Of a stretch of 64,000 nucleotides of DNA, positions 1-56,345 are shown piece after piece. The stretch lies in the NCBI RefSeq assembly GCF_018977255.1, contig NW_024704743.1, positions 3,350,001 to 3,414,000 of the forward strand, written 5' to 3'. The first letter of the stretch is position 1. Each line of letters begins with the position of its first letter. A program made the translations under genes and the position numbers. The stretch is from Callorhinchus milii (Eukaryota). Below the pieces are notes generated by a model, which searched no databases, was not told where the DNA came from, and was given only the letters and a program-made list of their open reading frames with translations.

Positions 1-220
1 ACACCGCCCCAGAAAAATCTTTCAGATCACAACTGAAGACCATCCACTTTGATTGTTTTGTTGGTCTCCTCCCCCTCTCCCACGGCTCGGCCATTGCCAA
101 GCGCTCTGAGACGATGCCCCATGCGAAGGGCACTGGGCAAGTGCAGGTTGTTGTTGTGGTTGAGTTGGGTAAGTGCAGGTTGATGCTGTGCCCACTGTTG
201 ATGTTCTTGTGCTTTCCCAG

Positions 221-3200
221 AAACCTGGAAACCCATCAAGGACCCGTGGGCCATCACAAAGCGCCAAGGTAATGGATACAGCCTGCTCTTGTCAATCTGG
301 GCCTTTCTTCTATTTCTCAATGGAATTGCTTCACAAGGAATCGACTTCCGGCGAAATTCCCATACCATTCCTTACCAGCAATCCCGTTCGAGGGCCTCAA
401 TGCTATTCCCCCATTTCTCTGTTTTATTCTGTGAAGTGCTTTGAGACATCTCAATAATGTGATAAGGAGCTATATTGAATGCAATGATTATTACTATTAA
501 TAACGATAGTTCCATCAGGACAACTGCACAGTGAAGGAGCTCTCCAACCAACTCAACAGCTCAGTCTGGCTATTGCTTGAAAATTTCTATGGGATGAAAG
601 TTAACATCAGTGACACAACTTAAACTTGTGTTGTGCAGCTGAAGTCATCGATTTCAATGTTCTATTTCTCGTCTTCAAACCTTTCACGTATCGGCACCTC
701 CCTATCTTTCTACCCACTCCTCCACTCGCTGCCTCTATTCAGTTGGCTCAGGGCTCCTGCTTGACCTTTGTTCCCTCCACTGACAAGCGATGGCTGCGCA
801 TTCAATACGACTCTCCGAAGCTTTGGAAATTACTCCCTCTGCATCGTCCCCTCCTTCCTCACTTTTAGATCTTCCAGGGCACTGCTGATGGCAGCACAGA
901 CAGCCTGGCTCATCGGCAAGACCTAGAAGGGCAGACCAGTCACTTGGGACTCATCCCATTCATGTCTTGTTAACCCTGCAAGCCAAAGCTCTGACAGTTA
1001 GGGTAGTCCTTGCTGGACAAGCAGTGGGAAAGCTTGCCGGACAGCAACATCAATTGCAAACTATGCAATTTTAGATGGTTAGACATCAGCAGTTTCCCCT
1101 GATGCAGACTATGGGTTCCCCAAGCCTTGTCTTTTGCCAAACTGCACCTAATAGTTTCTGGAATTACGTAAGCACTATGTGTCCCTCCAGGGAGAGAATG
1201 CGCATTCCATTCCAACAATCTATCGCTGGGATTTCCATGTGTAGGTGGGATGCATGGAATTCCCAGTTTGGTTTGGATACTCTTAAACACGATGATGGGT
1301 ATCCATATGTGTCAGACACTCGGCTGACACCGCACCAGAAAAATCTTTCAGATCACAACTGAAGACCATCCACTTTGATTGTTTTGTTGGTCTCCTCCCC
1401 CCTCTCCCACGGCTCGGCCATTGCCAAGCGCTCTGAGACGATGCCCCATGCGAAGGGCACTGGGCAAGTGCAGGTTGTTGTTGTGGTTGAGTTGGGTAAG
1501 TGCAGGTTGATGCTGTGCCCACTGTTAATGTTCTTGTCCTTTCCCAGAAACCTGGAAACCCATCAAGGACCCGTGGGCCATCACAAAGCGCCAAGGTAAT
1601 GGAGACAGCCTGCTCTTGTCAATCTGGGCCTTTCTTCTATTTCTCAATGGAATTGCTTCGTAAGGAATCGACCTCTGGTGAAATTCCACTCCATTGCTTA
1701 CCAGCAATGCCGTTCGAGAGGCTCAATTATATGCTCCTGTTTCTCTGTGAAGTGCTTTAAGACATGTCAATGATGTGATAAGGAGCTATATTGAATGTAA
1801 GGATTATTAGTATCAATTACGATAGTTCCATCAGGACATCTACACAGTGAAGGAGCCGCCAACCATCTCAACACCTGGGTCTGGCTATTGCTTGAAAGTT
1901 TCTATGGGATGAAGGTTAACATCAGTGACACAACGTGAACTTGTGTTGTGTAGCTCACGTCATCGATTTCAAGGTTCTATTTCTTGTCTTCAAACTTTTC
2001 ACGTATCGGCACCTCCCTATCTTTCTAACCTGCTTTCTACCAACTCCTCCACTCGCTGCCTCTATTCAGTTGGCTCAGGGCTCCTATTTGTCCTTTGTTC
2101 CCTCCACTCCACAAGCGATGGCTGCGCTTTCAATACTACTCTCCGAAATTTTGGAAATTACTCCCTCTGCATCGTCCACACCTTCCTCACTTTTTGATCT
2201 TCCAGGGCACTGCTGACGACAGCACAGACAGCCTGGCTCATCAGCAGGACCTGGAAGGGCAGACCAGTCACTCGGGGCAGTGATTCATCATACTCATGTC
2301 TTGTTAACCCTGCAAGCCAAAGCCCTGATAGTTAGGGTGGTCCTTGCTGGAGAAGCAGTGGGAAAGCTTGCCGGACAGCAACATCAATTGCAAACTATGT
2401 GGTTTTAGATGGTTAGGCTTGAGCAGTTACCCCTAATGCAGACTCTGGGATCCCCAAGCCTTGGCTCTTGCCAGCCTACGCCTAATAGTTTCTGGAATTA
2501 CGTAAGCACGATGTGTCCCTCCAGGGAGAGATTGCGCATTCCATTCCAACAATCTATCGCTGGGATTTCCATGTGTAGGTGGGATGCATGGAATTCTCAG
2601 TTTGGTTTGGATACTTTTAAACACGATGATGGGTATCCGTATGTGTCAGAGACACTCGGCTGACACCGCCCCAGAAAAATCTTTCAGATCACAACTGAAG
2701 ACCATCCACTTTGACTGTTTGCTCGGTCTCCTCCCCCTCTCCCACGGCTCGGCCATTGCCAAGTGCTCTGAAACGCTGCGCCATGTGAAGGGCACTGGGC
2801 AAGTGCAGGTAGTTGTTGTGGTTGAGTTGGGTAAGCGCAGGTTGATGCTGTGGCCACTGTTGATGTTCTTCTCCTTTCCCAGAAACATGGAGACCCACCA
2901 AGGACCCATGGACCACCACCAGGCGCCAAGGTAATGGAGACAGCCTGCTCTTGTCAATCTGGGCCTTTCTTGTATTTCTCAATGGAATTGCTTCGTAAGG
3001 AATCGACTTCTGGTGAAATTCCACTCCATTCCTTTCCAGCAATCCCGTTCGAGGGGCTCAATGCTATTCCCCCATTTCTCTGTTTTATTCTGTGAAGTGC
3101 TTTGAGACATCTCAATGATGTGATAAGGAGCTATATTGAATGCAATGATTATTACTATTAATAACGATAGTTCCATCAGGACAACTGCACAGTGAAGGAG

Positions 3201-6200
3201 CTCTCCAACCAACTCAACAGCTCAGTCTGGCTATTGCTTGAAAATTTCTATGGGATGAAGGTTAACATCAGTGACACAACTTAAACTTGTGTTGTGCAGC
3301 TGAAGTCATCGATTTCAATGTTCTATTTCTCGTCTTCAAACCTTTCACGTATCGGCACCTCCCTATCTTTCTACCCACTCCTCCACTCGCTGCCTCTATT
3401 CAGTTGGCTCAGGGCTCCTATTTGTCCTTTGTTCCCTCCACTGACAAGCGATGGCTGCGCATTCAATACGACTCTCCGAAGCTTTGGAAATTACTCCCTC
3501 TGCATCGTCCCCTCCTTCCTCACTTTTAGATCTTCCAGGGCACTGCTGATGGCAGCACAGACAGCCTGGCTCATCGGCAAGACCTGGAAGGGCAGACCAG
3601 TCACTCGGGACTCATCCCATTCATGTCTTGTTAACCCTGCAAGCCAAAGCCCTGACAGTTAGGGTAGTCCTTGCTGGACAAGCAGTGGGAAAGCTTGCCG
3701 GAGAGCAACATCAATTGCAAACTATGCAGTTTTAGATGGTTAGACATCAGCAGTTTCCCCTGATGCAGACTATGGGTTCCCCAAGCCTTGTCTTTTGCCA
3801 AACTGCACCTAATAGTTTCTGGAATTACGTAAGCACTATGTGTCCCTCCAGGGAGAGAATGCGCATTCCATTCCAACAATCTATCGCTGGGATTTCCATG
3901 TGTAGGTGGGATGCATGGAATTCCCAGTTTGGTTTGGATACTCTTAAACACGATGATGGGTATCCATATGTGTCAGACACTCGGCTGACACCGCCCCAGA
4001 AAAATCTTTCAGATCACAACTGAAGACCATCCACTTTGATTGTTTTGTTGGTCTCCTCCCCCCTCTCCCACGGCTCGGCCATTGCCAAGCGCTCTGAGAC
4101 GATGCCCCATGCGAAGGGCGCTGGGCAAGTGCAGGTTGTTGTTGTGGTTGAGTTGGGTAAGTGCAGGTTGATGCTGTGCCCACTGTTGATGTTCTTGTCC
4201 TTTCCCAGAAACCTGGAAACCCATCAAGGACCCGTGGGCCATCACAAAGCGCCAAGGTAATGGAGACAGCCTGCTCTTGTCAGCCTGGGCCTTTCTTCTA
4301 TTTCTCAATGGAATTGCTTCACAAGGAATCGACTTCCGGCGAAATTCCCATACCATTCCTTACCAGCAATCCCGTTCGAGGGGCTCAATGCTATTCCCCC
4401 ATTTCTCTGTTTTATTCTGTGAAGTGCTTTGAGACATCTCAATGATGTGATAAGGAGCTATATTGAATGCAATGATTATTACTATTAATAACGATAGTTC
4501 CATCAGGACAACTGCACAGTGAAGGAGCTCTCCAACCAACTCAACAGCTCAGTCTGGCTATTGCTTGAAAATTTCTATGGGATGAAGGTTAACATCAGTG
4601 ACACAACTTGAACTTGTGTTGTGTAGCGCAAGCCATCAATTTGAAGGTTCTATTACTCATCTTCAAACCTTTCACGTATCAGCACCTCTCCATCTTTCCA
4701 AGCTGCTTTCTACCCACTCTTCCACTCGCTGCCTCTATTCAGTTGGCTCAGGACTCCTACTTGTCCCTTGGTCCCTCCACTCCAAAATCGCTGGCTGCGC
4801 TTTCAGCCACTACTCTCTGAAGCTTTGGAAATTTCTCCCTCAATCGCTCTGCATCGTCCTCACTTCTAGATCTTCCAGGGCACTGCTGATGACAGCACAG
4901 ACAGCTGATTGGCAGGACCTGGAAGTGCAGATCAGTCAATCGGGGCAGGAATTCATCCCACTCATGTCCTTGTTAACCCAGCAAGCCAAAGCCCTGACGG
5001 TTAGGTTGGTCCTAGCTGGACAAGCAGCGGGAAAGCTTGCCGGATAACAACATTATTGCAAGCTTGTGGTTTTAGATGGTTAGGCTTCAGCAGTTACGCC
5101 TAATGCAGACTCTAGGATCCCCAAGCCTTGGCTCTTGCCAGCCTACGCCTAATAGTTTCTGGAATTACGTAAGCACTATGTGTCCCTCCAGGGAGAGAAT
5201 GCGCATTTCATTCCAACAATTTTTCTCTGGGATTTCCAAGTGTAGGTGGGCTGCATGGGAATCTCAGCTTGGTTTGGCCACTCTTAAACACAGTAATGGG
5301 TTTCTGCATATGTCAGACACCCGGCTGAGCACCACCGCCCCCCAAATCTTTCAAATCACAACTGAAGACCATAAACTTTGACAGTCCTTATGGCCATCTC
5401 CTCCCGCTCACCCGGCCAAGGGCTCTGAGATGCTGCCCCATATGACGGGCACTGGGCAAGTGCAGGTTGTTGTTGTGGTTGAGTTGGGTAAGTGCGGGTT
5501 GAGGCTGTGCCCACTGTTGATGTTCTTGTCCTTTCCCAGAAACCTGGATTCCAATCAAGGACCCGTGGACCACCACAAGGCGCCAAGGTAATAATAATAA
5601 TAATAATAATCCTTGCATTTGATATAGCGCTTTTCATGTCGGGAGGACGTCCCAAAGCGTTTCACAGAACACAATGTAAAGTGAATTGACTGTATATTTG
5701 TCGGCGAACACGGCAGCCAATGGAGCACAGCAATGTCCCACAAACAATCGTGGATTGAAAATGACCAATTTATTATTGTGTTTTTTTTGGAGGGATTATT
5801 ATTAGGCTCTGTGTGGAGTAAGGAAACTTGCCCAAGGTTTCGCCCTGCCTGGAATTGAACTCAGGTCTCTCGCTTGCAAAGCGAGTGCTCAAACCACTGA
5901 GCTACAGGACTCCACGACAGCGTGCTCTTGTCAGTCTGGGCCTTTCTTCTATTTCTCAATGGAATTGCTTCATAAGGAATCGACTTCGGGTGAAATTCCA
6001 TTCCATTCCTTACCAGCAATCCCGTTCGAGGGGGTCAATGCTATTCTCCTGTTCCTCTGTGAAGTGCTTTGAGACATGTCAATGTTCTGATAAGGAGCTA
6101 TATTGAATGCAAGGATTATTACTATTAATAACGATAATTCCATCAAGACAATTGCATAGTTAAGGAGCCGCCAACCAACTCCACACCTTGGTCTGGCTAT

Positions 6201-8794
6201 TGCTTGAAAGGTTCTATGGGATGAGGGTTAACATCAGTGACACAACTTGAACTTGTGTTGTGGAGCTGAAGTCATCGATTTCAAGGTTCTATTTCTCATC
6301 TTCAAACCTTTCACGTATCGGCACCTCCCTATCTTTCTAACCTGCTTTCTACCCACTCCTCCACTCACTGCCTCTATTCAGTTGGCTCAGGGCTCCTATT
6401 TGTCCTTTGTTCCCTCCACTCCACAAGCAATGGCTGCGCTTTCAACACTACTCCCCGAAGCTTTGGAAATGACTCCCTCTGCATCGTCCACACCTTCCTC
6501 ACTTTTAGATCTTCCAGGGCACTGCTGATGACAGCACAGAGAACCTGGCTCATCGGCAGGACCTGGAAGGGCAGACCAGTCACTCGGGGCAGGGATTCAT
6601 CCCACTCATGTCTTGTTAACCCTGCAAGCCAAAGCCCTGATAGTTAGGGTGGTCCTTGCTGGGCAAGCAATGGGAAAGCTTGCCGCACAGCAACATCAAT
6701 TGCAAACTATGCGGTTTTAGATGGTTAGACTTCAGCAGTTACCCCTAATGCAGACTAGGGTTCCCCAAGCCTTGTCTTTTGCCAAACTGCACCTAATAGT
6801 TTCTGGAATTGGTTAAGCACTATGTGTCCCTCCAGGGAGAGAGATTGCGCATTCCATTCCATCAATCTATCAATGGGATTTCCATGTGTAGGTGGGATGC
6901 ATGGAATACTCAATTTGGTTTGGATACTCTTAAACACGGTGATGGGTATCCGTATGTGTCAGACACGCGGCTGACACCGCCCCATAAAAATCTTTCAGAT
7001 CACAACTGAAGACCATCCACTTTGACTGTTTGTTCGGTCTCCTCCCCCTCTCCCACGGCTCGGCCATTGCCAAGCAATCTGAGACGCTGCCCCATGTGAA
7101 GGGCACTGGGCAAGTGCAGGTTGTTGTTGTGGTTGAGTTGGGTAAGTGCAGGTTGATGCTGTGGCCACTGTTGATATTCTTGTCCTTTCCCAGAAACATG
7201 GAGACCCACCAAGGACCCGTGGACCACCACAAAGCACCAAGGTAATGGAGACAGCCTGCTCTTGTCAATCTGGGCCTTTCTTCTATTTCTCAATGGAATT
7301 GCTTCGTGAGGAATCGACCTCTGGTGAAATTCCACTCCATTGCTTACCAGCAATGCCATTCGAGAGGCTCAATTATATGCTCCTGTTTCTCTGTGAAGTG
7401 CTTTAAGACATGTCAATGATGTGATAAGGAGCTATATTGAATGTAAGGATTATTAGTATCAATTACGAAAGTTCCATCAGGACATCTACACAGTGAAGGA
7501 GCCGCCAACCAACTCAACACCTTGGTCTGGCTATTGCTTGAAAGGTTCTATGGGATGAAGGTTAACATCAGTGACACAACTTGAACTTGTGTTGTGTAAC
7601 TCAAGTCATCGATTTCAAGGTTCTATTTCTCATCTTCAAACCTTTCACGTATCGGCACCTCCCTATCTTTCTAACCTGCTTTCTACCCACTCCTCCACTC
7701 GCTGCCTCTATTCAGTTGGCTCAGGGCTCCTATTTGTCCTTTGTTCCCTGTACTTCACAAGCGATGGCTGCGCTTTCAACAATACTCTCCGAAGCTTTGG
7801 AAATTACTCCCTCTTCATCGTCCACTCCTTCCTCACTTTTAGATCTTCCAGGGCACTGCTGATGACAGCACAGATAGCCTGGCTCATTGGCAGGACCTGG
7901 AAGGGCAGAGCAGTCACTCGGGGCAGAAATTTATCCCACTCATGTCTTGTTAACCCTGCAAGCCAAAGCCCTGACAGTTAGGGTGGTCCTTGCTGGGCAA
8001 GCAGTGGGAAAGCTTGTCGGACAGCAACATCAATTGCAAACCATGCGGTTTTAGATGGTTAGACTTCAGCAGTTACCCCTAATGCAGACTCTGGGATCCC
8101 CAAGCCTTGTCTTTTGCCAAACTGCACCTAATAGTTTCTGGAATTGGTTAAGCAGAATGTGTCCCTCCAGGGAGAGAGATTGCGCATTCCATTCCAACAA
8201 TCTATCGCTGGGATTTCCATGTGTAGGTGGGATGCATGGAATTCTCAGTTTGGTTTGGATACTCTTAAACACGGTGATGGGTATCTGTATGTGTCAGACA
8301 CTCGGCTGACACCGCCCCAGAAAAATCTTTCAGATCACAACTGAAGACCATCCACTTTGACTGTTTGTTTGGTCTCCTCCCCCCTCCCCCACAGCTCGGC
8401 CTTTGCCAAGCGCTCTGAGACCCTGCCCCATGTGAAGGGCAATGGGCAAGTGAAGGTTATTGTTGTGGTTGAGTTGGCTAAGTGCAGGTTGATGCTTTGG
8501 CCACTGTTGATGTTCTTCTCCTTTCCCAGAAACATGGAGACCCACCAAGGACCCATGGACCACCACCAGGCGCCAAGGTAATGGAGACAGCCTGCTCTTG
8601 TCAATCTGGGCCTTTCTTCTATTTCTCAATGGAATTGCTTCATAAGGAATCGACTTCTGGTGAAATTCCACTCCATTCCTTACCAGCAATCCCGTTCGAG
8701 CAGCTCAATGCTATTCTCCTGTTCCTCTGTGAAGTGCTTTGAGACATGTCAATGATGTGATAAGGAGCTATATTGAATGCAAGTACTAATAATC

Positions 8795-8830
<36 letters not shown>

Positions 8831-11800
8831 CAGTACTAATAACGATCGTTACATCAGGACATCTGCACAGTGAAGGAGCCGCCAACCAACTCAACACCTT
8901 GGTCTGGCTATTGCTTGAAAGTTTCTATGGGACGAAGGTTAACATCAGTGACACAACTTGAACTTGTGTTGTGTAGCTCACGTCATCGATTTCAAGCTTG
9001 TATTTCTCGTCTTCAAACCTTTCCTCCACCTCCCTATCTTTCTAATCTGCTTTCTACCCACTTCTCCTCTCGCTACCTCTATTCAGTTGGCTCAGTGCTC
9101 CTGCTTGTCCCTTGGTCCCTCCACTCCAAAATTGCTGGCTGCGCATTCAGCCACTACTCTCCGAAGCTTTGGAAATTTTTCCCTCAATCCCTCTGCATCA
9201 TTCTCTCCTTTCTCACTTTTCAATCTTCCAGGGCACTGCTGATGGCAGCACAGACAGCCTGGCTCATCGGCAGGACCTGTAAGGGCAGACCAGTCACTTG
9301 GGGCAGGGATTCATCCCATTCATTTCTTCTTAACCCAGCAAGCCAAAGCCGTAACGGTTTGGGTGATCCAAGTTGGACAAGCAGCGGGAAAGCTTGCCGG
9401 GCAGCAACATCAATTGCAAACTATGTAGTTTTACATAGTTAGGCTTGAGCAGTTACCCCTAATGCAGACTCTGGGATCCCCAAGCCTTGGCTCTTGCCAG
9501 CCTATGCCTAATAGTTTCTGGAATTATGTAAGCACTATGTGTCCCTCTAGGGAGAGAATGCGCATTTCATTGCAACAAATTTTCTCTGGGATTTCCAAGT
9601 GTAGGTGGGCTGCATGGGAATCTCAGCTTGGTTTGGCTACTCTTAAACACGGTAATGGGTTTCTGCATGTGTCAGACACCCGGCTGAGCACCACCGCCCC
9701 CCAAATCTTTCAAATCACAACTGAAGACCATAAACTTCGACAGTCCTTATGGCCATCTCACCCCGCTCACCCGGCAAAGGGCTCTGAGATGCTGCCTCAT
9801 TTGACGGGCATTGGGCAAGTGCAGGTTGTTGTTGTGGTTGAGTTGGGTAAGTACAGGTTGATGCTGTGGCCACTGTTGATGTTCTTGTCCTTTCCCAGAA
9901 ACATGGAAACCCACCAAGGACCCGTGGACCACCACCAAGCGCCAAGGTAATGGAGACAGCCTGCTCTTGTCAGCCTGGGCCTTTCTTCTATTTCTCAATG
10001 GAATTGCTTCATAAGGAATCGACTTCTGGTGAAATCTCCACGCCATTCCTTACCAGCAGTCCTGTTCGAGGGTCTCAGTGATATTCTCCTGTTTCTCTGT
10101 GAAGTGCTTTGAGACATGTCAATGTTCTGATAAGCAGCTATATTGAATGCAAGGATTATTACTATTGATAACGATAATTCCATCAAGACAATTGCATAGT
10201 TAAGGAGCCGCCAACCAACTCAACACCTTGGTCTGGCTATTGCTTGAAAGGTTCTATGGGATGAAGGTTAATTTCAGTGACACAACTTGAACTTGTGTTG
10301 TGTAGCTCACGTCATCGATTTCAAGGTTCTATTTCTCATCTTCAAACTTTTCACGTATCGGCACCTCCCTATCTTTCTAACCAGCTTTCTACCCACTCCT
10401 CCACTCGCTGCCTCTATTCAGTTGGCTCAGGGCTCCTATTTGTCCTTTGTTCCCTCCACTCCACAAGCGATGGCTGCGCTTTCAACACTACTCCCCGAAG
10501 CTTTGGAAATGACTCCCTCTGCATCGTCCACTCCTTCCTCACTTTTAGATCTTTCAGGGCACTGCTGATGACAGCACAGACAGCCTGGCTCATCAGCAGG
10601 ACCTGGAAGGGCAGACCAGTCACTCGGGGCAGGGATTCATCCCACTCATGTCTTGTTAACCCTGCAAGCCAAAGCCCTGATAGTTAGGGTGGTCCTTGCT
10701 GGAGAAGCAGTGGGAAAGCTTGCCGGACAGCAACATCAATTGCAAACTATGTGGTTTTAGATGGTTAGGCTTGAGCAGTTACCCCTAATGCAGACTCTGG
10801 GATCCCCAAGCATTGGCTCTTGCCAGCCTACGCCTAATAGTTTCTGGAATTACGTAAGCACTATGTGTCCCTCCAGGGAGAGATTGCGCATTTCATTCCA
10901 ACAATCTATCTATCGCTGGGATTTCCATGTGTAGGTGGGCTGCATGGAATTCTCAGTTTGGTTTGGCTACTCTTAAACACGATGATGGGTATCCGTATGT
11001 GTCAGACACTCGGCTGACACGGCCCCATAAAAATCTTTCAGATCACAACTGAAGACCATCCACTTTGACTGTTTGTTCGGTCTCCTCCCCCTCTCCCATG
11101 GCTCGGCCATTGCCAAACGCTCTGAAACGCTGCCCCATGTGAAGGGCACTGGGCAAGTGCAGGTTGTTGTTGTGGTTGAGTTGGGTAAGCGCAGGTTGAT
11201 GCTGTGGCCACTGTTGATATTCTTGTCCTTTCCCAGAAACATGGAGACCCACCAAGGACCCATGGACCACCACTAGGCGCCAAGGTAATGGAGACAGCCT
11301 GCTCTTGTCAATCTGGGCCTTTCTTCTATTTCTCAATGGAATTGCTTCGTAAGGAATCGACCTCTGGTGAAATTCCACTCCATTCCTTACCAGCAATCCG
11401 TTCGAGAGGCTCAATTATATGCTCCTGTTTCTCTGTGAAGTGCTTTAAGACATGTCAATGATGTGATAAGGAGCTATATTGAATGTAAGAATTATTAGTA
11501 TTAATAACAATAGTTCCATCAGGACATCTGCACAGTGAAGGAGCCGCCAACCAACTCAACACCTTGGTCTGGCTATTGCATGAAAGTTTCAATGGGATGA
11601 AGGTTAACATCAGTGACACAACTTAAACTTGTGTTGTGTAGCTGAAGTCATCGATTTCAATGTTCTATTTCTCGTCTTCAAACCTTTCACGTATCGGCAC
11701 CTTCCTATCTTTCTACCCACTCCTCCACTCGCTGCCTCTATTCAGTTGGCTCAGGGCTCCTGCTTGACCTTTGTTCCCTCCACTGACAAGCGATGGCTGC

Positions 11801-23800: not shown

Positions 23801-26800
23801 ATCAATTGCAAACCATTCGGTTTTAGATGGTTAGACTTCAGGAGTTACCCCTAATGCAGACTCTGGTATCCACAAGCCTTGGCTTTTGCCAAAATGCACC
23901 TAATAGTTTCATGAATTAGTTAAGCAGGATGTGTCCGTCCAGGGAGAGAGATTGCGCATTCCATTCCAACAATCTATCGCTGGGATTTCCATGTGTAGGT
24001 GGGATGCATGGAATTCTCAGTTTGGTTTGGATACTCTTAAATACGGTGATGTCTATCCGTATGTGTCAGCTGACACCGTCCCAGAAAAATCTTTCAGATG
24101 ACAACTGAAGACCATCCACTTTGACTGTTTGTTCGGTCTCCTCCCACCTCTCCCATGGCTCGGCGATTGCCAAGCGCTCTGAAACGCTGCATATGTGAAG
24201 GGCACTGGGCAAGTGCAGGTTGTTGTTGTGGTTGAGTTGGGTAAGTGCAGGTTGATGCTGTGGCCACTGTTGATGTTCTTCTCCTTTCCCAGAAACATGG
24301 AGACCCACCAAGGACCCATGGACCACCTCCAGGCGCCAAGGTAATGGAGACAGTCTGCTCTTGTCAATCTGGGCCTTTCTTGTATTTCTCAGTGGAATTG
24401 CTTCGTAAGGAATCGACTTCTGGTGAAATTCCACTCCATTCCTTACCAGCAATCCCGTTCGAGGGGCTCAATGATATTCTCCTGTTCCTCTGTGAAGTGC
24501 TTTGAGACATGTCAATGATGTGATAAGGAGGTATATTGAATGTAAGGATTATTACTATTAATAACGATAGTTCCATCAGGACATCTGCACAGTGAAGGAG
24601 CCGCCAACCAACTCAACACCTTGGTCTGGCTATTGCTTGAAAGGTTCTATGGGATGAAGGTTAACATCAGTGACACAACTTGAACTTGTGTTGTGTAGCT
24701 CACGTCATCGATTTCAAGGTTCTATTTCTCGTCTTCAAACCTTTCACGTATCGGCACCTCCCTACCTTTCTAACCTGCTTTCTACCCACTCCTCCACTCG
24801 CTGCCTCTATTCAGTTGGCTCAGGGCTCCTATTTGTCCTTTGTACCCTCCACTCCACAAGCGATGGCTGCGCTTTCAACACTACTCTCCGAAGTTTTGGA
24901 AATTACTCCCTCTGCATCGTCCACACCTTCCTCACTTTTAGATCTTCCAGGGCACTGCTGATGACAGCACAGACAGCCTGGCTCATCAGCAGGACCTGGA
25001 AGGGCAGACCAGTCACTCGGGGCAGGGATTCATCCCACTCATGTCTTGTTAACCCTGCAAGCCAAAGCCCTGATAGTTAGGGTGTTCCTTGCTGGGCAAG
25101 CAGTGGGAAAGCTTGCCGCACAGCAACATCAATTGCAAACTATGCGGTTTTAGATGGTTAGACTTCAGCAGTTACCCCTAATGCAGTCTAGGGTTCCCAA
25201 GCCTTGTCTTTTGCCAAACTGCAACTCCCCTCTCCCACAGCTCGGCCTTTGCCAAGCGCTCTAAGACCCTGCCCATGTGAAGGGCAATGGGCAAGTGAAG
25301 GTTATTGTTGTGGTTGAGTTGGGTAAGTGCAGGTTGATGCTTTGGCCACTGTTGATGTTCTTCTCTTTTCCTAGAAACATGGAGACCCACCAAGGACCCA
25401 TGGACCACTACCAGGCGCCAAGGTAATGGAGACAGCCTGCTCTTGTCAATCTGGGCCTTTCTTCTATTTCTCAATGGAATTGCTTCATAAGGAATCGACT
25501 TCTGGTGAAATTCCACTCCATTCCTTACCAGCAATCCCGTTCGAGGGCTCAATGATATTCTCCTGTTCCTCTGTGAAGTGCTTTGAGACATGTCAATGAT
25601 GTGATAAGGAGCTATATTGAATGTAAGAATTATTAGTATTAATAACGATAGTTCCATCAGGACATCTGCACAGTGAAGGAGCCGCCAACCAACTCAACAC
25701 CTTGGTCTGGCTATTGCTTGAAAGTTTCTATGGGATGAAGGTTAACATCAGTGACACAACTTGAACTTGTGTTGTGTAACTCAAGTCATCGATTTCAAGT
25801 TTCTATTTCTCGTCTTCAAACCTTTCACGTATCGACATCTCCCTATCTTTCTAACCTGCTTTCTACCCACTCCTCCACTCGCTGCCTCTATTCAGTTGGC
25901 TCAGGGCTCCTGCTTGTCCTTTGTTCCCTCCACTGACAAGCACTGGTTGCGCTTTCAACACGACTCTCTGAAGCTTTGGAAATTACTCCCTCTACATCGT
26001 CCCCTCCTTCCTCAATTTTAGATCTTCCAGGGCACTGCTGATGGCAGCACAGACAGCCTGGCTCATCGGCCGGACCTGGAAGGGCAGACCAGTCACTTGG
26101 GACTCATCCCATTCATGTCTTGTTAACCCTGCAAGCCAAAGCCCGAATGGTTAGCTGGTCTCGCAGTACAAGCAGTGGGAAAGCTTGCCGGACAGCAACA
26201 TCAATTGCAAACCATTCGGTTTTAGATGGTTAGACTTCAGGAGTTACCCCTAATGCAGACTCTGGTATCCACAAGCCTTGGCTTTTGCCAAAATGCACCT
26301 AATAGTTTCATGAATTAGTTAAGCAGGATGTGTCCGTCCAGGGAGAGAGATTGCGCATTCCATTCCAACAATCTATCGCTGGGATTTCCATGTGTAGGTG
26401 GGATGCATGGAATTCTCAGTTTGGTTTGGATACTCTTAAATACGGTGATGTCTATCCGTATGTGTCAGCTGACACCGTCCCAGAAAAATCTTTCAGATGA
26501 CAACTGAAGACCATCCACTTTGACTGTTTGTTCGGTCTCCTCCCCCCTCTCCCATGGCTCGGCGATTGCCAAGCGCTCTGAAACGCTGCATATGTGAAGG
26601 GCACTGGGCAAGTGCAGGTTGTTGTTGTGGTTGAGTTGGGTAAGTGCAGGTTGATGCTGTGGCCACTGTTGATGTTCTTCTCCTTTCCCAGAAACATGGA
26701 GACCCACCAAGGACCCATGGACCACCACCAGGCGCCAAGGTAATGGAGACAGTCTGCTCTTGTCAATCTGGGCCTTTCTTGTATTTCTCAATGGAATTGC

Positions 26801-29800
26801 TTCGTAAGGAATCGACTTCTGGTGAAATTCCACGCCATTCCTTACCAGCAATCCCGTTCGAGGGGCTCAATCATATTCTCCTGTTCCTCTGTGAAGTGCT
26901 TTGAGACATGTCAATGATGTGATAAGGAGCTATATTGAATGTAAGGATTATTACTATTAATAACGATAGTTCCATCAGGACATCTGCACAGTGAAGGAGC
27001 CGCCAACCAACTCAACACCTTGGTCTGGCTATTGCTTGAAAGTTTCTATGGGATGAAGGTTAACATCAGTGGCACAACTTGGCCTTGTGTTGTATTCCTT
27101 AAGCCATGGATTTCAAGGTCCACTTATTCATCTTCAAACCTTTCACACCATGGCACCTCCCAACCTTTCTGAACTGCATTCTAACTACTCTACCACCCGC
27201 TGCCACTGCTCAGATGGCTCCGGCCTCCTCCTTGTTCCTTGACCCCTCCACTCCACCATTGCTGGCTGCGATGTCAGTCACTACTCTGCAGATCTTCGGA
27301 AATTTCTCCCTTAATTCCTTTGCTTCGCCCCCTACTTTCTGACTTTTAGATCTTCCAGGGCACTGCTGATTACAGCACAGACAGCCTGGCTCATCGGTAG
27401 GACCTGGAAAGGCAGACCAGTCAATCGGGGCAGGGATTCATCCCATTTATGCCTGATTAACTGTGCAAGTCAAAGCCCTAACGGATAGGGTGGTCCCAGC
27501 TGGACAAGCAGTGGGAAAGCTTGCGGGACAGCAATATCTATTGCAAGCTACATGGCTTTAGCTCGTTAGACTCTGGCAGTTACTCCCAATGCAGACTCTG
27601 GGATCCCCAAGCCTTGGCTCTTGCCAAACTGCACCTAATAGTTTAGCAGGATGCGTGCCTCCAGGGAGAAAGATCGTGCTTTCCATTGCATCAATCTATC
27701 TCTGGCACTTCCATGTGTCGGTGGGATACGTGGGAATCTCAGCTTGGTTTAGATACTCATCAATTCGAAGATGGGTTTCCGCATGTGTCAGACACCAGGC
27801 CTTCTCCTCTGAAAAAAAATCTTTCAGATCACAACTGAAGACCATCCACTTGAACTGTCCTTATGATCACCTCCCCCCTCTGCCCCGGCTCGGCCATTGC
27901 CAAGCACTCCGAAACACTGCCCCATGTGAAGGGCACTGGGCAAGTGCAGTTTGTTGTTAATGTGTTGGGTAAGTGCAGGTAGATGCTGTGGCCACTGTTG
28001 ATGCTCTTGTCCTTACCCAGAACCCTGGACACCCACCAAGGACCCATGGACCACCACAAAGTGCCAAGGTAATGGAGACAGGCTGCTCATGTCAGCCTGG
28101 GCCTTTTTTCTATTTCTCAATGGAATTACTTCATAAGGAATCGAATGCCCATGACATTCCCACACCATTCCTTACAAGCAATCCTTTCGAGGGGCTCAAT
28201 GCTATTCTCCTGTTTCTCTGTTTTATTCTGTGAAATGCTTTGAGACATCTCAATGACGTGATAAGGAGTTGTATTGAATGCAAGGATTATTACTATTATT
28301 AACAATAGTTCCATCAGGACTAACCACACAGTGTGGGAGCTCGCCAACCAACACAACACCTTGGTCTAGCTCTTGGCTCAAGATTTCTCTGGGAGAAAGG
28401 TTGACTTCAGTGATACAATTTGGCCTTGTGTTGTGTAGTGGAAGCCATTGATTTCAATGTCCTCTTACTCGTCTTCAAACCTTTCACATCATGGCACCTC
28501 CATACCTTTCTGACCTGCTTTCCGCCCTCTCCACCAACCACTGTGTCTACTCAGCTGGCTCTGGGCTTCTGCTTTTCCCTTGTCCCATACAGTTTACCAT
28601 TGCTTGCCGCGCTTTCAGTCACTGCTCTCCAATGCTTTGGAAATCTCTCCCTGAATCCCTTTGCCTCGTCCACTCCTTCCTCTTTTTTAGATCTTCCAGG
28701 GCAATGCTGTTGACAGCACAGCCAGCCTGGCTCTTCGGCAGGACCTGGAAAGATAGACAAATCAATCGGGGCATGGACTCATCCCACTCGTGTCTTGTTA
28801 ACCCTGCAAGCCAAAGCCCGAACGGTTAGGGTGGTCCTAGCTAGATAAGCAGCGGGAAAGCTGGCCGGACAGCAATATCTATTGCAAGCTATGCGATTTT
28901 AGCTGGTTAGACTCTAGCAGGTACCTTCAACGCACACGCTGGGATCGCCAAGCCTTGGCTATTGCCAACCTGTGCCTAATAATTTCCGGAATTAGTTAAG
29001 CAGGATTCGTTCCTCCAGGGAGAGAGATTGCGCATTCCATTCCAACAACTTATCTGTGGGATTTCCATGTGTAGTGGGGATGCATGGGAATCTCAACTTG
29101 GTTTGGATACACCTAAACACGGTGATGGGTATCCGTATGTGTCATACACTCGGCTGATACCTCCCCAAAAATATCTGTCGGTTCACAACTGAAGACCATC
29201 CACTTCGACTGTTTTTTTGTTCTCCTCCCCCCTCTCCCACGGCTCGGCCATTGCCAAGCGCTCTGAGACGCTGCCCCATGTGAAGGGCACTGGGCAAGTG
29301 CAGGTTGTTGTTGTGGTTGAGTTGGGTAAGTGCAGTTTGATGCTGTGCCAACTGTTGATACTCTTATCCTTTCCCAGAACCCTGGACACCCACCAAGGAC
29401 CCGTGGACCACCACAAGGCGCCAAGGTAATGGAGACAGCCTGCTCTGGGCCTTTCTTCTATTTCTCAATGGAATTGTTTCATAAGGAATCGACTTCCCTT
29501 GACATTCCCACAGTATTCCTTACAAACATACCCGTTCGAGGGGCAAAATGATATTCTCCTGATTCTCTGTTTTATCTGTGAAGCGCTTTGAGACATCTCA
29601 ATGATGTTATAAGGAGTTACATTGAATGCAAGGTTATTACTATGATTAACAATAGTTCCATCAGGACTGACCAAACAGTGAGGGAGCTCGCCAACCAACA
29701 CAACACCTTGGTCTGGCTCTCGGTTCAAAGTTTCTCTGGGAGAAAGGTTAACATCAGTGTGACAATTTGGTCTTGTGTTGTGCAGCTCAAGCCATCGATT

Positions 29801-32423
29801 TCAAGGTCCTCTTACCCATCTTGAAATCTTACACATCATGGCACCTCCCTATCTTTCTGAGCTGCTTGCTATCTAGTCCACAACCCGGCCACCTGCGTGC
29901 CCTTGTCCCCTCCACTCCACTATCGCTTGGCCGCGCTTTCAGGCACTGCTCTGTAAAGCATTGGAAATCTCTCCCTTATTTCCTCTGCTTTGCTCCCTCC
30001 TTCCTGTCTTTTAGATCTTCCAGGGCACTGCTGATGACAGCACAGACAGCCTGGCTCATTGGCAGGACCTGGAAGGGCAGGCCAGTCACTCGGGGCAGGG
30101 AGTCATCTCATTCATGGCTGATTAACCGTGCCAGCCAAAGCCCTAACGGAGAGGGTGGTCCTAGTTGGATAAGCAGCGGAAACGCTTGCCAGACAGCAAT
30201 ATCTATTGCAAGCTACATGGCTTTAGCTGGTTAGACTCTAGCAGTTACCCCCAATGCAGACTCTAGGATCCCCAAGCCTTGGCTCTTGCCAAACTGAACC
30301 TAATAGTTTCCGGAATTAGTTAAGCAGGATTCGTTCCTCCAGGGAGAGAGATTACGCATTCCATTCCAACAACTTATCTGTGGGATTTCCATGTGTAGTG
30401 GGGATGCATGGGAATCTCAACTTGGTTTGGATACACCTAAACACGGTGATGGGTATCCGTATGTGTCATACACTCGGCTGATACCTCCCCAAAAAGATCT
30501 TTCAGTTCACAACTGAAGACTGGAGTCCTGTAGCTCAGTGGTTAGAGCACTCGCTTTGCAAGTGAGAGACCTGAGTTCAATCCCAGGCAGAGGGCGAAAC
30601 CTTGGGCAAGTTTCCTTACTCCACACAGAGCCCTAATAATAATCCCTCCAAAACCAAAAACAATAATAAATTGGTCATTTTCAACCTACGACTGTTTGTG
30701 GGACATTGCTGTGCGCAATTGGCTGCCGCGTTCGCCCACAAATATACAGTCAATTCACTTTACAGTGTGTTCTGTGAAGCGCTTTGGGACGTCCTCCCGA
30801 CGTGAAAAGCGCTATATCAAATGCAAGGATTATTATTATATTATTATTATTATTATTATAAGACCATCCACTTCGACTGTTTTTTTGTTCTCCTCCCCCC
30901 TCTCCCATGGCTCGGCCATTGCCAAGCGCTCTGAGACGCTGCCCCATGTGAAGGGCACTGGGCAAGTGCAGATTGTTGTTGTGGTTGAGTTGGGTAAGTG
31001 CAGTTTGATGCTGTGCCAACTGTTGATACTCTTATCCTTTCCCAGAACCCTGGACACCCACCAAGGACCCGTGGACCACCACAAGGCGCCAAGGTAATGG
31101 AGACAGCCTGCTCTTGTCAGTCTGGGCCTTTCTTCTATTTCTCAATGGAATTGTTTCATAAGGAATCGACTTCCCTTGACATTCCCACAGTATTCCTTAC
31201 AAACATACCCGTTCGAGGGGCAAAATGATATTCTCCTGATTCTCTGTTTTATCTGTGAAGCGCTTTGAGACATCTCAATGATGTTATAAGGAGTTACATT
31301 GAATGCAAGGTTATTACTATGATTAACAAGAGTTCCATCAGGACTGACCACACAGTGAGGGAGCTCGCCAACCAACACAACACCTTCGTCTGGCTCTCGG
31401 TTCAACGTTTCTCTGGGAGAAAGGTTAACATCAGTGTGACAATTTGGTCTTGTGTTGTGCAGCTCAAGCCATCGATTTCAAGGTCCTCTTACCCGTCTTG
31501 AAATCTTACACATCATGGCACCTCCCTATCTTTCTGAGCTGCTTGCTATCTAGTCCACAACCCGGCCACCTGCGTGCCCTTGTCCCCTCCACTCCACTAT
31601 CGCTTGGCCCCACTTTCAGGCACTGCTCTGTAAAGCATTGGAAATCTCTCCCTTATTTCCTCTGCTTTGCTCCCTCCTTCCTGTCTTTTAGATCTTCCAG
31701 GGCAATGCTGATGACAGCACAGACAGCCTGGCTCATTGGCAGGACCTGGAAGGGCAGGCCAGTCACTCGGGGCAGGGAGTCATCTCATTCATGGCTGATT
31801 AACCGTGCCAGCCAAAGCCCTAACGGAGAGGGTGGTCCTAGCTGGATAAGCAGCGGAAACGCTTGCCAGACAGCAATATCTATTGCAAGCTACATGGCTT
31901 TAGCTGGTTAGACTCTAGCAGTTACCCCCAATGCAGACTCTAGGATCCCCAAGCCTTGGCTCTTGCCAAACTGAACCTAATAGTTTCTGGAATTAGTTAA
32001 GCAGGATGCGTGCCTCCAGTGAGAGAGATTGTGCTTTCCATTGCATCAATTTATCTCTGACACTTCCATGTGTCGGTGGGATACGTGGAAATCTCAGCTT
32101 GGTTTGGATACTCATCAATACGATGACGGGTTTCCGCATGTGTCAGACACCAGGCCTTCTCCTCTGAAAAAAAATCTTCCAGATCATAACTGAAGACCAT
32201 CCACTTGAACTGTCCTTATGGTCACCTCCCCCCTCTGCCCCGGCTCGGCAATTGCCAAGCGCTCCGAAACGCTGCCCCATGTGAAGGGCACTGGGTAAGT
32301 GCAGTTTGTTGTTACTGTGTTGGGTAAGTGCAGGTAGATGCTGTGGCTACTGTTGATGCTCTTCTCCTTACCCAGAACCCTGGACACCCACCAAGGACCC
32401 GTGGACCACCACAAGGTGCCAAG
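221..32423 (+). CDS. Gene A: 25 tandem 48-nt phase-1 micro-exons encoding ETW(R/K)PTKDPWTTT(R/K)RQ repeats (Thr/Pro/Trp-rich, basic, mucin-like)
   Basis: Each exon has a pyrimidine tract plus (c/t)AG acceptor and an AAG|GTAAT donor. Exon starts: 221, 1548, 2883, 4209, 5540, 7194, 8530, 9899, 11237, 12544, 13878, 15197, 16527 (46 nt), 17890, 19223, 20580, 21891, 22975, 24293, 25375, 26692, 28021, 29378, 31046, 32376. Many differences between copies are synonymous in this frame (ACA/ACC, CCA/CCG, GAC/GAT, ACC/ACT). Both Trp codons and KDPW are invariant. Confidence 0.8.
5593..5914 (-). mobile_element. Full-length tRNA-derived SINE
   Basis: On the - strand: head tggagtcctgtagctcagtgg...gagttcaattcc (A/B boxes) and tail atcaaatgcaagga(tta)n. 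Confidence 0.9.
30521..30859 (+). mobile_element. Full-length tRNA-derived SINE with 5-bp target-site duplication (AAGAC)
   Basis: A box tagctcagtgg, B box gagttcaatcc, (tta)n tail; AAGAC at 30516-30520 and 30860-30864; empty site visible in sister units. Confidence 0.93.
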
Positions 32424-33232
32424 GTAATGGAGACAGCCTGCTCTTGTCAGTCTGGGCCTTTCCTCTATAATGGAATTGTTTCATACAGAATCGACTTCCT
32501 GTGAAATTGCCACAGCAAACCCATTCGAGGGGCTCATTGATAATCTCTTGATTCACTGTTTTATTCTCTGAATCCCTTTGAGACATCTCAATGACCTGAT
32601 AAGGAGCTACATTGAAAGCACGGATTATTACTATTATTAACAATAGCTCCTCAGGACTAACCACACAGCGAAGGAGCTCGCCAACCAAAACAAAACCTTG
32701 GTTTGGCTCTCGGTTCAAAGTTTCTCTGGGAGGAAGGTTAACATCAGTGAGACAATTTGGCCTTGTGTTGTGTACCTCAAGCCATCGATTTCAAGGTCCT
32801 CTTATTCGTCTTGAAACCTTACACGTCATGGCATCTCCCTATCTTTCTAACCTGCTTTGTACCCACTCCACCACCTGCTGCCTCTGCACAGCTGGCTCCG
32901 GCGTCCTGCTTCTCCCTTGTCCCCTCCTCTCCACCATCGCTGGCCGTGCTTTCAGCCACTACTCTGCAAAGCTTTGGAAATCTCTCCCTCAATCCCTCTG
33001 CGTCGCTCCCCCCTTCCTGTCTTTTTGATCACGACTGAAGACCTCCTCTCCTTCTGTGCTTAGGGTCACCTCTCCTTCCCTTCGGCTTAGTGTCAGGCTC
33101 TGCCACTATGAAGCGCTCCGAGATGCTGACCTGCATGATGGGAACTGTATAATTGCAGGTGGTTGTTGTTGTTGAGTTGTGTAAGTGTAGGTTGATGCTG
33201 TGCCCGCTCTTGATGCTCTTGTCCTTTCCCAG

Positions 33233-33334
33233 AAACCTGGACACCCACCAAAGACCCGTGGACCACCAAAGACCCGTGGACCACCAAAGACCCATGGACC
33301 ACCAAAGACCCGTGGACCACCACAACGCGCCCAG
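33233..33334 (+). CDS. Gene A exon: expanded repeat exon ETWTPTKDPWTTKDPWTTKDPWTTKDPWTTTTRP
   Basis: cctttcccag acceptor and CAG|GTAAAG donor; 102 nt = 48 + 3x18, so phase 1 is preserved. Confidence 0.8.
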
Positions 33335-33825
33335 GTAAAGGAAACAGGCTGCTCCTGTCAGCCTGGGCCTTTCTGCTACATCTCAATGGAATTGCTACAT
33401 AAGGAATCAACTTCCAGTGAATTTCCCGCAGCATTCCTTTACCAGCAATCCCATTGCCGCATCCCTGTGCAAGTCGATTGTGTCAGTGCTCTTCCTGCCC
33501 AGGGTTATGTTAGGGGAAGTCCATTCCTCCCTATCGCACTGACGTGCCCACTATTGTAGGGATATGTTCTTTATAACAGGGAACCACTATGCTATGGGAC
33601 ACGTGGAGTCCTGTAGCTTTGTAGTTACAACACCCGCCTCGCAAGCGAGAGGACCCGGGTTTGATTGGCGGGCCAGGCATCACTGTGTCACTGTGTGGCT
33701 ATTTTACTGTGTGACATTGTGGCTGTATCACTGTGTGGCTGTGTCACTGTGTCGCTATGTCACTACATCACTGTATCACTGCATCACTGTGTGGCTGTGT
33801 GACTGACGCTGTTTCTCTCGTGCAG

Positions 33826-33882
33826 GCTGCCCCACCGAGACACCGAGCACGCCTCCACCTCCTGTGTACCCACCCATTCCAG
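33826..33882 (+). CDS. Gene A exon: Pro-rich linker GCPTETPSTPPPPVYPPIP
   Basis: ctgac branch point plus gtttctctcgtgcag acceptor; consensus CAG|GTGAGT donor; 57 nt, phase 1-1. Confidence 0.8.
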
Positions 33883-34672
33883 GTGAGTGAAGCACAGGGA
33901 GTTAAGTTGGACACGCATCAAGTGGGGCTATGGTGGCCAACCTTTATGGTCAACCAAATAACCAAATAACTGCATTTTCTGGATTGAATTTTGACCCACG
34001 GTCTCAGTCGTCAACGGTGTATCCTGTGAAGCACTTTGAGTCGTTTCAACAACGAGCGAATGCATTGTATCAAACGGAAGAATTATCATTATTATTATTA
34101 TTATTATCATTATTATATCTCTTGATTATTTGCCATAAATAGGGCTGAATTGGCTCCAGGTTCAGGGTGGGTGAAAACTCAGCCAGGTCTCCTGCTCCTG
34201 GTCCCTCTACTGGCTGTGAGAGATGGAGAGACGTCAGCAGCACAACCACTGGAGTCTGTAGAGCGGGCTCATGCAGGGTAGCGTCGCAGAGCGGTGTGGG
34301 AAGGACCACGGAATTAAAACTATCTTACAGTGAGAAGCAGAGAGGAGAGAAATAGAGGGGGAGAACTGCCGGGCAGCACTCTCAATGGGAAGCTGTGAGG
34401 TTTTAGCTGGTTAGACTCCAGCAGTTACCCCAACGTACGCTCTGGCGTCCCCCAAGCCTTGGCTGTTGCCAACCTGCGCCTAATACTTTCCGGGATTAGG
34501 TAAGCAGGATACGTCCCTCCAGGGAGAGAGTGCGCATTCCTTTCCAACAATCCACCTCTGGGATTTCCTTGCGCTGCTGGTTTGTGTTGCTGGCATGTTT
34601 TGCTTGCGTGTTACTGGCATGTGTTGATGGTGTGTTGGAGGCGTGTGTTGCTGAAGCTTTGATCTTTTGCAG

Positions 34673-34876
34673 GCTGTGGGTGTGGAGGTTGCTGTGGCTG
34701 TCGATGTGACTGTGAGAGATGTGAAGGATATCACAAGGTGCCCTACGACTGCCCCTCCTGCTTCCAGTCTGGGGTCACCCAGCATCATCCCTGCCTTGGT
34801 CAAATAGTCTTCAAACCTGCATCTGGTACCTGGGTCTGGGAATGCCAGGCTCCTCCTGCTCAGCCCCCAGTCTGGG
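34673..34876 (+). CDS. Gene A exon: Cys-rich segment plus degenerate CBM14-like domain (GCGCGGCCGCRCDCERCEGYHKVPYDCPSCFQSGVTQHHPCLGQIVFKPASGTWVWECQAPPAQPPVW)
   Basis: gatcttttgcag acceptor and G|GTAAGT donor; 204 nt, open in phase 1 (the phase-0 reading stops at 34804). G-Y-x-x-V-P-x-D...C-x-x-x-I-V-F-K-P...W spacing resembles CBM14. Confidence 0.72.
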
Positions 34877-35405
34877 GTAAGTCAAATTCTCTCCCTCAAT
34901 CCCTCCGCCTTGCCCCCTCCCTCCCCACTTTCAAAATCCACCTAAAGACCTTCCGTTTTCTCCGTGCTTACGGTCACCTCTCCTCTTCCCCTGGCTTGGG
35001 GTAAGACTCCACCACTGTCAAGGACTCCGGGATGCTACACCGCATGAAGGGTGCTATATAAATGCAATTGTTGTTGTTGTTGTGAGTAAACGGGGCAATA
35101 AGTGGATGGTTTCACTTGTACAGGCTGTCCACAAAGTCCTGTTACTCACATGTTTATTTTCCTACAGTGCCCTGACCATGAACTGTAACATGCGGAAGAA
35201 TGTTGATAACTGTATTCAGATGTACTATTGTATTGTATTCCGTGTGTAGCTGTATTTAGAGGTCCAGAGGATAGGTGTGAGTGTGTTACTGTGTGACTGC
35301 GTGGCTGTGTGATTGTATAACTGTATGGCTGTGTGACGGTATGGCTGTGTCGCTGTATCACTGTGATGCCTTTGCTCAGCTCCTGACACTGTGATTCTCG
35401 TACAG

Positions 35406-35410
35406 GCTAG
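35406..35410 (+). CDS. Gene A probable terminal exon (G-stop), with 3' UTR to about 35890
   Basis: ctgac...ttctcgtacag|GC TAG; AATAAA at 35866-35871. An alternative acceptor near 35168 cannot be excluded. Confidence 0.55.
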
Positions 35411-35865
35411 ACCACAAGGACATCAATCATCGGTTCCACAGCTGAACCCCCAGAGGACAAGGGGATTCTCAGGGCGGTGCGGGAGTGTTAAACCCTCAGC
35501 TCCCCCCCCACACCACACCTCGCTCAGCCTCAGCACCACACAGTGACCATACCAGGGGGTGGGGGGGATAGGGGTGTGGAAGGGGTTGCGAAGTGTTAAA
35601 CCCTCCCTGGTCAACAGCAGTTGCTGGAACCATATCGCGAACAGGACATTCCTTTCTCTGGGAAAACATTCCCTTTCTCTTCCCCCTTGTACTCGGGCTC
35701 CACCAAATCCTATTTCCAAATATTTCTTCATGGGTGAAACAGTGACATAGAGCTCTGCTGTGCCACAGATCAAGATTAGTCCAAGGATTAATAATAATCA
35801 CTGATCATAATGTGTTATTGACGGGACGAGTAGTGGGGTTGATTTTCTTGACATTTTGAAGTTTC

Positions 35866-35871
35866 AATAAA
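35866..35871 (+). terminator. Polyadenylation signal (AATAAA) for gene A
   Basis: First AATAAA I see downstream of the putative stop, followed by GT/T-rich sequence. Confidence 0.5.
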
Positions 35872-47640: not shown

Positions 47641-47789
47641 ATGGAAATGTTGATAGCAATTAATTCTGGATGGATTATTCTACAACAGAGTGGAAAGCTT
47701 TGGGAACCTTAGATCCAAAGTGGAGCTCATCCCTCTTATACCCTGTGCTGAAGGCCTCATATCTTAGTAAAAGAAGTGCATGCAGTACT

Positions 47790-52600: not shown

Positions 52601-52606
52601 GTGTAC

Positions 52607-56335: not shown

Positions 56336-56345
56336 GACCGCTCAC

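Follow-up and report, generated by a model that had tools for sequence, protein, structure and literature searches.

The architecture described for salmon chitinase is a signal peptide followed by GH18 and CBM14 domains (PMC10234404), and the disulfides essential to CBM14 are, in CHIT1, C420-C440 and C450-C463, with an exposed C-terminal Trp at W465 (PMC4844120). Chitinous gut membranes are described from lancelet, hagfish and tilapia, and proteins joining chitin-binding domains to Pro/Thr/Ser-rich (PTS) stretches from insect matrices, in a source whose available text mentions neither shark nor cartilaginous (PMC6109156). Chitin has been reported from chondrichthyan ampullary gel, including that of a holocephalan (10.1101/687301), and the viscosity of ampullary gel comes from proteins that the accessible part of the study does not identify (PMC8379299). 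The proteins organising vertebrate chitin matrices are thus far largely unnamed, and the locus described here gives two concrete candidates, one of them with a repeat chemistry unmatched in our searches. It lies in a 64,000-nucleotide stretch of the Callorhinchus milii genome (the window; RefSeq assembly GCF_018977255.1, contig NW_024704743.1, positions 3,350,001 to 3,414,000, forward strand), in which an array of micro-exons, by appearance a 40-kb satellite, is most likely part of an unannotated gene. Its product would be secreted, cationic, mucus-like and studded with Trp, and the gene would descend from a chitin-binding family.

Peritrophins and insect intestinal mucins share with this gene a signal peptide, a Thr/Pro-rich chain, chitin-binding-domain ancestry and a plausible matrix role (PMC6109156), but here the leader is of the vertebrate chitinase type, the CBM14-like segment scores under the Pfam cut-off and the repeat is basic, with 13% Trp. 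Vertebrate GH18 chitinases of the CHIA/CHIT1 type end in a CBM14 (PMC10234404) to which a segment of the last coding exon (the Cys-rich exon) compares, and one of them, a chitinase on C. milii contig C19, has a leader with the same exon structure, but the locus has no GH18 domain and its product is not an enzyme. Lamprey multi-CBM14 proteins of the XP_078477949.1 cluster (P0006), the best match of the Cys-rich exon, are likewise secreted, GH18-less vertebrate proteins with CBM14 and short Thr linkers, but they carry twelve intact CBM14 stretches and have neither the Trp/Arg repeat nor the Cys/Gly-rich stretch. The VWD/C8/TIL assemblies and cystine knot of gel-forming mucins (MUC2 type) are absent, as the 628-aa model leaves no room for them and the Cys-rich exon has no Pfam match. 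LPA kringle IV-2 and DMBT1 are examples of tandem exon duplication. Other arrays of this kind also consist of a symmetrical exon amplified with its intron (PMC8373072, PMC9741552), but the exon amplified here is a micro-exon of 16 codons, less than 4% of a repeat-filled 1.3-kb unit, and is present in 30 copies. The parts of the gene (chitinase-type leader, PTS chain, CBM14 ancestry, tandem exon duplication) are of known kinds; their combination, and the cationic Trp repeat on 30 micro-exons, had no match in the protein, atlas and literature searches.

The exon array and the gene model

The window contains 26 exon-like copies between 221 and 33334, each between AG and GT and spaced at about 1.3 kb (range 0.86-1.67 kb), and four further copies upstream bring the repeat exons to 30, all with AG/GT ends. 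An earlier note on this DNA had proposed 26 tandem micro-exons with acceptor and donor sites, which is borne out; its 48-nt segment in each unit holds for 24 of the 26, the exceptions being 102 nt (at 33233) and 46 nt (16527-16572) long. Its description of the units as otherwise transposon debris also holds, since dispersed repeats make up about 55% of one intron when compared with 181 kb of other DNA. The repeat segment itself is confined to this locus (30 of 30 matches in the 992-Mb genome) and so is not a dispersed element. Array units are 80-100% identical to each other.

Together with the upstream DNA the array forms a model of 37 exons over 44.5 kb, with no exon at a non-AG/GT site and a first exon of phase 1. 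Thirty-four of the 35 internal exons are divisible by three and all but one are symmetrical phase 1. The order is a TATA-like box, ATG, signal peptide, RKRR furin site, 30 repeats, a Pro- and Cys-rich tail, stop codon and AATAAA; the N-terminus is hydrophobic in the signal-exon region, and all seven unique exons keep frame and splice sites. The three unique phase-1 exons that the note had followed to a stop and AATAAA are as described (Table 1). It had also suggested inspecting the upstream DNA for signal-peptide, CBM14 or GH18 exons: a signal peptide is present, with a promoter-like box, ATG and furin site in the same phase, and no GH18 exon occurs in the locus. Without the 46-nt copy the product has 628 aa, 76 kDa and a predicted isoelectric point of 10.1. 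Its repeat region (482 aa; 28% Thr, 13% Pro, 13% Trp, 22% Arg+Lys, net charge +46) is 42% Thr+Pro+Ser, which with the predicted signal peptide is the composition of a PTS mucin. Trp residues are spaced by 7 and 9, and by 6 in the last repeat exon, and the C-terminal tail of 88 residues contains 13 Cys. Neither a WxxW motif nor an N-glycosylation sequon occurs in the 628-aa model.

The locus is probably a real gene. Coding sequence occupies less than 5% of the repeat-like 44.5-kb span, and repeat masking and short-read assembly would hide such a gene. That the array is instead a non-coding satellite of transposon debris with chance splice-like motifs is highly improbable: about half of the unit is dispersed repeat and exon diversity is just modestly under that of the intron, but the 48-nt segment is found only here, lies in phase between a signal-peptide leader and a stop/polyadenylation end, and follows a leader paralogous to that of an annotated gene.

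Two consecutive two-unit blocks (window 21891-26691) are about 100% identical, through either very recent duplication or assembly artefact, and an identity of 98% between the units at 8530 and 19223 points to higher-order turnover. The unit at 29378-31045 is extended to 1668 nt by an insertion at about 30520-30860, which we take to be like a short interspersed element with a tRNA-like head; that at 5540-7193 is comparably long (1654 nt).

Variation among copies and read cover

Codon statistics were calculated from the 28 copies of 48 nt, and stops in the phase-2 frame were counted over 29 copies of in-frame length. The phase-1 reading put forward in the earlier note is the commonest form (12 of 28), and no stop variant occurs in that frame among the 28. 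Its account of the other frames holds, phase 2 having a stop (the TAG it reported) in 4 of 29 copies and phase 0 an omega (dN/dS) of 2.1-2.9, so that changes there are replacements; phase 2 has an omega similar to that of phase 1, but contains the stop. Both Trp codons are invariant in all aligned copies, as claimed. KDPW, also said never to change, has D or P altered in three upstream copies, and the statement that differences between copies are often silent finds weak backing in the counts (8 silent against 20 replacement variants, omega 0.75, p 0.31). Pairwise pN/pS in the phase-1 frame is 0.51.

On a tree of the 30 copies, changes per site number about 1.5 in intron flanks, 1.6 at four-fold sites, 0.5 at first and 1.5 at second codon positions, whereas AG, GT and both Trp codons show none. 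Invariant non-CpG sites amount to 23 of 42 in the exon compared with 34% of 194 background sites (p 0.010), and to 47 of 81 in the exon plus splice region (p 0.0002); the Trp part of this test was picked after data inspection, and AG/GT alone give p about 0.013. The copies are non-independent because of gene conversion. Over whole units (23 of 25, two near-identical ones excluded), the exon-versus-intron comparison that the note had called for finds the exon less diverse, but modestly and not significantly so (pi 0.090 versus 0.113, with 16% of 48-nt intron windows equally conserved), while AG/GT stay fixed as introns change. Selection on the array is real but narrow. Counting a position that is always Lys or Arg, five of the 16 residues are invariant in the 28 copies: both Trp, one Lys, this basic position 14 and a Gln.

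The last two of these bear on the main rival explanation, a polyprotein precursor whose repeats would be cut at the C-terminal dibasic pair to release about 20 two-Trp peptides of 14 residues starting with Gln, which can cyclise to pyroglutamate. Multi-copy neuropeptide or skin-peptide precursors, with a signal peptide and dibasic-bounded repeats, offer the analogy. In the array 23 of 28 copies end RR-Q or KR-Q, position 14 is Lys or Arg and the Gln is present in all 28, and the predicted signal peptide and RKRR site make convertase processing plausible. We nevertheless consider such a precursor unlikely. The dibasic pair is missing from five of the 28 copies and from the 102-nt copy, the sites lack the P4 Arg that furin needs, the Thr beside the site would probably be glycosylated, the released peptide would be net neutral and the paralogue is a mucin-type protein. 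As the Gln codon is directly next to the donor site, splicing may be what keeps it invariant.

Several observations weigh against a functional coding array. The dN/dS result given above is not significant (six frames were compared), second codon positions change at the intron rate, and indels are not significantly depleted in the exon (1 observed against 3.5 expected). The main objection is the copy at 16527-16572, which is 46 nt long, shifts the frame and, if included, ends it at 374 aa; the earlier note had missed it. The results given below for exon junctions, for the CBM14 relation of the Cys-rich exon and for orthologues point the same way. The hidden gene proposed in the note is well supported by its upstream anatomy and by paralogy to a CBM14 mucin; on the other side stand the non-significant silent-site test, the frameshifted copy and the junction result.

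For the 46-nt copy we favour an assembly error. The two missing nucleotides lie in the columns of the repeat exon that vary most, just where mixed reads from paralogous copies would yield a faulty consensus. A second repeat at this locus makes such indel errors plausible: in the 21-nt repeat exon of a neighbouring gene (window 52627-53116, minus strand) one unit has 20 nt, a frameshift in this assembly that may be an error or an allele. A null allele or a skipped exon is possible. The null allele belongs to a second explanation, in which the locus is a decaying paralogue, a once-functional CBM14 mucin duplicate with a near-neutral array whose conserved sites reflect past selection and homogenisation. 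The frameshifted copy, an omega not different from 1, the degenerate CBM14 and the lack of an orthologue in protein searches would all suit decay, but seven of seven unique exons retain frame and splice sites, stop variants are absent from the 28 copies, the invariance spans units 80-100% identical, the youngest included, and the neighbour's own short unit makes an indel error plausible. Decay therefore seems improbable.

Exon skipping leads to a third, in which a real secreted gene has its symmetrical exons skipped in varying number, the 46-nt copy always, to give a ladder of chain lengths. The near-uniform phase-1 symmetry of the internal exons would permit this, and a donor-like GTAAG motif about 50 nt 5' of the acceptor in 28 of 30 copies (for example window 170-176), possibly a decoy site or splicing regulator, could weaken inclusion. 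However, the splice signals of the 46-nt copy are the same as those of its neighbours, so its selective skipping would have no visible cause, and we give this explanation little weight.

Of twelve sequencing runs five covered the stretch (X1 with a share of 0.13), none of them recorded as RNA. Runs X1, X12, X6 and X2 were mapped on 30950-36000, with the 46-nt copy outside that interval; X1 and X12 come from one sample of one study and are RNA by guess only. Each of these two gave one contig, at depth 15-16, over a micro-exon with majority-copy letters at 31071 and 31083. Their matches stop at 31093, the last exon base, after which all genomic copies read GT, whereas the DNA run X2 continues; at 31120 X1 and X12 have no cover, compared with 141 in X2. 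Contig ends at the exon edge fit the splicing prediction, yet with one sample that is RNA by guess they amount to less than a weak hint. X1 also covers 206 nt of the 3' untranslated region (UTR), and the unique coding exons have no cover in X1 or X12. No exon-exon junction was found among the 15 joints listed of 630 for 30950-36000, all repeat noise, and from these 15 splicing is neither shown nor excluded.

Ancestry of the leader and the Cys-rich exon

The signal exon and its flank are identical to those of the neighbouring gene at 49 of 64 nt, and none of 452,056 other positions reaches 36. The neighbour's exon is the sole other match of the signal exon in the 992-Mb genome (E 4.1e-9), and alignment of the promoter and exon 1 of the two genes scores 43, compared with a maximum of 32 in 200 shuffles. 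The signal exon of the C19 chitinase agrees with that of the array gene in length (33 nt), phase (1) and 3' end (QL-G), from which we infer that the leader shares descent with the two-exon leader of GH18 chitinases and that a chitinase-type leader was reused for a non-enzymatic secreted protein. GH18 exons are absent from the locus, and the 11 GH18 matches in the genome are all on C19 and C5.

The neighbouring gene lies tail to tail with the array gene, and one of its CBM14 exons is 98% identical to C. milii XP_007899433.1, annotated as mucin-2-like (P0014). The two genes share paralogous promoters, a 16-nt ATG exon, a 33-nt signal exon, phase-1 exons, Thr-rich repeats and growth by tandem exon-plus-intron units; five of the neighbour's eight CBM14 domains are on tandem 1.06-kb units, the same mode of amplification as in the array. 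They differ in that all eight CBM14 domains of the neighbour are intact and its Thr repeats are neutral or acidic and free of Trp, with no RKRR propeptide in its deposited model; the array gene carries a single CBM14-like segment, which is degenerate, and its 30 micro-exons encode a cationic Trp repeat. Compared with the assembly, the deposited model XP_007899433.1 is without the signal-peptide exon (54803-54835), includes four of the five CBM14 exons in tandem and shows far fewer 7-residue repeats.

The Cys-rich exon (P0001) is probably derived from CBM14 but is not a member of that family, as a weak similarity is combined with the absence of the canonical disulfides and a negative Pfam result. 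Among 1.84 billion protein representatives it matches the lamprey multi-CBM14 protein best, the E of 3e-9 being a sum over 11 stretches. Scored with a local CBM14 profile it reaches 9.7 bits, a small margin over the best of 1000 shuffles (8.4); CBM14 homology is thus weakly detectable. Pfam finds no family at E 10, the exon stays below the PF01607 gathering cut-off of 22.1 bits and it is not among the 12 CBM14 matches in the genome. Comparison with CBM14 by hhalign gives a probability of 13% (E 0.0022), and each of the two disulfides essential according to PMC4844120 lacks one partner when the register is ungapped. The second CBM14 Cys falls within a 2-residue deletion, and the fourth is Trp in the ungapped comparison or is retained only with a 4-residue insertion. 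A Trp occupies the place of CHIT1 W465 in the ungapped comparison with lamprey P0006, in an ambiguous register. The letters of the exon are the same in the independent DNA run X2, so the odd disulfide pattern is not an assembly error. A CBM14 has the fold of a distorted beta-sandwich. Structure models of the exon reached a pLDDT of 53 and, when a CBM14 alignment was the starting point, of 69; fold searches with them gave no significant match, and CHIT1 entries ranked 12 and 23 of 116 non-significant rows with this alignment-biased model.

No close relative of the Cys-rich exon was found among the 1.84 billion representatives, none among longer proteins (four candidates examined), and BLASTP against one CBM14 of the neighbour gave no alignment. 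The repeat exon, searched with 8 flanking residues, had no homologue among 301 candidates. Protein searches with the two exons found no orthologue in other species; such searches are weak for short or low-complexity queries, and the collection included the older C. milii proteome. Atlas look-ups and a solved-structure search with exons of this gene gave no match, and the literature, covered as main texts without supplements and with subscription papers mostly outside, has no description of the gene or repeat. The domain that the earlier note did not recognise is hence placed in part: the leader and probably the last coding exon derive from the chitinase/CBM14 family, and the repeat itself stays unmatched in the searches. 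An 18-residue match to a bacterial FG-GAP repeat protein (P0007) and a genome match at C2:1886666 (E 1.6) were dismissed as chance, and four matches to the chitin-synthase family, not told apart from hyaluronan synthases, were not used.

Proposed mechanism, feature map and flanking genes

We favour, at about an even chance, a secreted matrix protein processed by proprotein convertase and derived from a chitinase-leader/CBM14 gene. Within a small family of mucin genes that have a chitinase-type leader and CBM14 but no GH18, one gene would have been duplicated locally in inverted orientation. Unequal crossing-over would then have amplified one symmetrical phase-1 micro-exon and its intron to 30 copies, and the single CBM14 at the C-terminus would meanwhile have decayed or been remodelled. 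In the product the signal peptide would be removed and furin would cut after RKRR; the 482-residue repeat, whose glycosylation is predicted from composition only, would form an extended O-glycosylated chain, on which the regularly spaced Trp and basic residues may act as multivalent binding sites for polysaccharide, whether chitin or sulfated glycans, and the tail with its 13 Cys may cross-link chains. In a mucus, gut membrane or gel that contains chitin, the protein would then serve for tethering or gelling. Provided that the gene is real, this secreted-tether mechanism is somewhat more probable than not. Any link of the gene to ampullary gel or gut membranes is putative, as are the O-glycosylation, polysaccharide binding and cation-pi assembly that the earlier note had suggested.

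A bolder proposal is that CBM14 was replaced by the Trp/Arg-Lys repeat as a polysaccharide-binding module of a new kind, linear and multivalent. A descendant of the chitinase family would have lost the enzyme domain, its CBM14 would have decayed, and about 60 invariant Trp would have been placed on an unstructured cationic chain via one amplified micro-exon. We regard this proposal as doubtful; if true, it would make the protein a candidate for the as yet unidentified proteins that tether chitin globules in chimaera gels or, in its other form, a vertebrate precursor of about 20 pyroglutamyl Trp-peptides.

Table 1. Features of the array gene and its neighbour (window positions, or positions in locus L004, G000:C2:3340201-3350200)
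Feature	Position	Strand	Evidence
Intron end joining the window to the 5' part of the gene in L004	1-220	+	
TATA-like box	near L004:1060	+	
ATG exon, 16 nt	L004:1128-1143	+	
Signal-peptide exon, 33 nt, hydrophobic	L004:1749-1781	+	
Propeptide exon, 66 nt	L004:2879-2944	+	
Furin-site (RKRR) exon, 60 nt	L004:4548-4607	+	
Upstream repeat exons (4)	L004:5424-5471, 6324-6371, 7543-7590, 8695-8742	+	
Repeat exons with introns (12), 48 nt, phase 1	221-15244; starts 221, 1548, 2883, 4209, 5540, 7194, 8530, 9899, 11237, 12544, 13878, 15197	+	
Repeat exon, 46 nt, 2 nt short, frameshifts if included	16527-16572	+	
Repeat exons (12), 48 nt, phase 1	17890-32423; starts 17890, 19223, 20580, 21891, 22975, 24293, 25375, 26692, 28021, 29378, 31046, 32376	+	
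Last repeat exon, 102 nt, in frame, internal 18-nt repeat, four KDPW motifs	33233-33334	+	
Pro-rich linker exon, 57 nt, phase 1, one Cys	33826-33882	+	
Cys-rich exon (last coding), 204 nt, phase 1; Gly/Cys-rich stretch, then degenerate CBM14-like segment	34673-34876	+	Letters identical in DNA run X2
Last exon; stop codon at start, 3' UTR, AATAAA at 35866	35406-35871	+	X1 contig, 206 nt, covers 35619-35824, no difference
Paralogous neighbour gene, tail to tail; ATG exon 56346-56361, signal exon 54803-54835, eight CBM14 domains, Thr-rich mucin repeats	40257-56361	-	

Two tandem GH18 chitinase genes are located at G000:C19:2891600-2905805 (L019, L020), the second ending in three CBM14 domains in one frame. 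Just 3' of the window are tandem SLC52 riboflavin-transporter genes on the minus strand (L014:75-2485 and L015:4115-8298; 60 of 145 candidate frames scanned, L005 and L016 included in the count). On the plus strand at about 5500-5700 of L006 is a frame that we take to resemble the C-terminal part of Scribble, which with SLC52 may bracket the locus.

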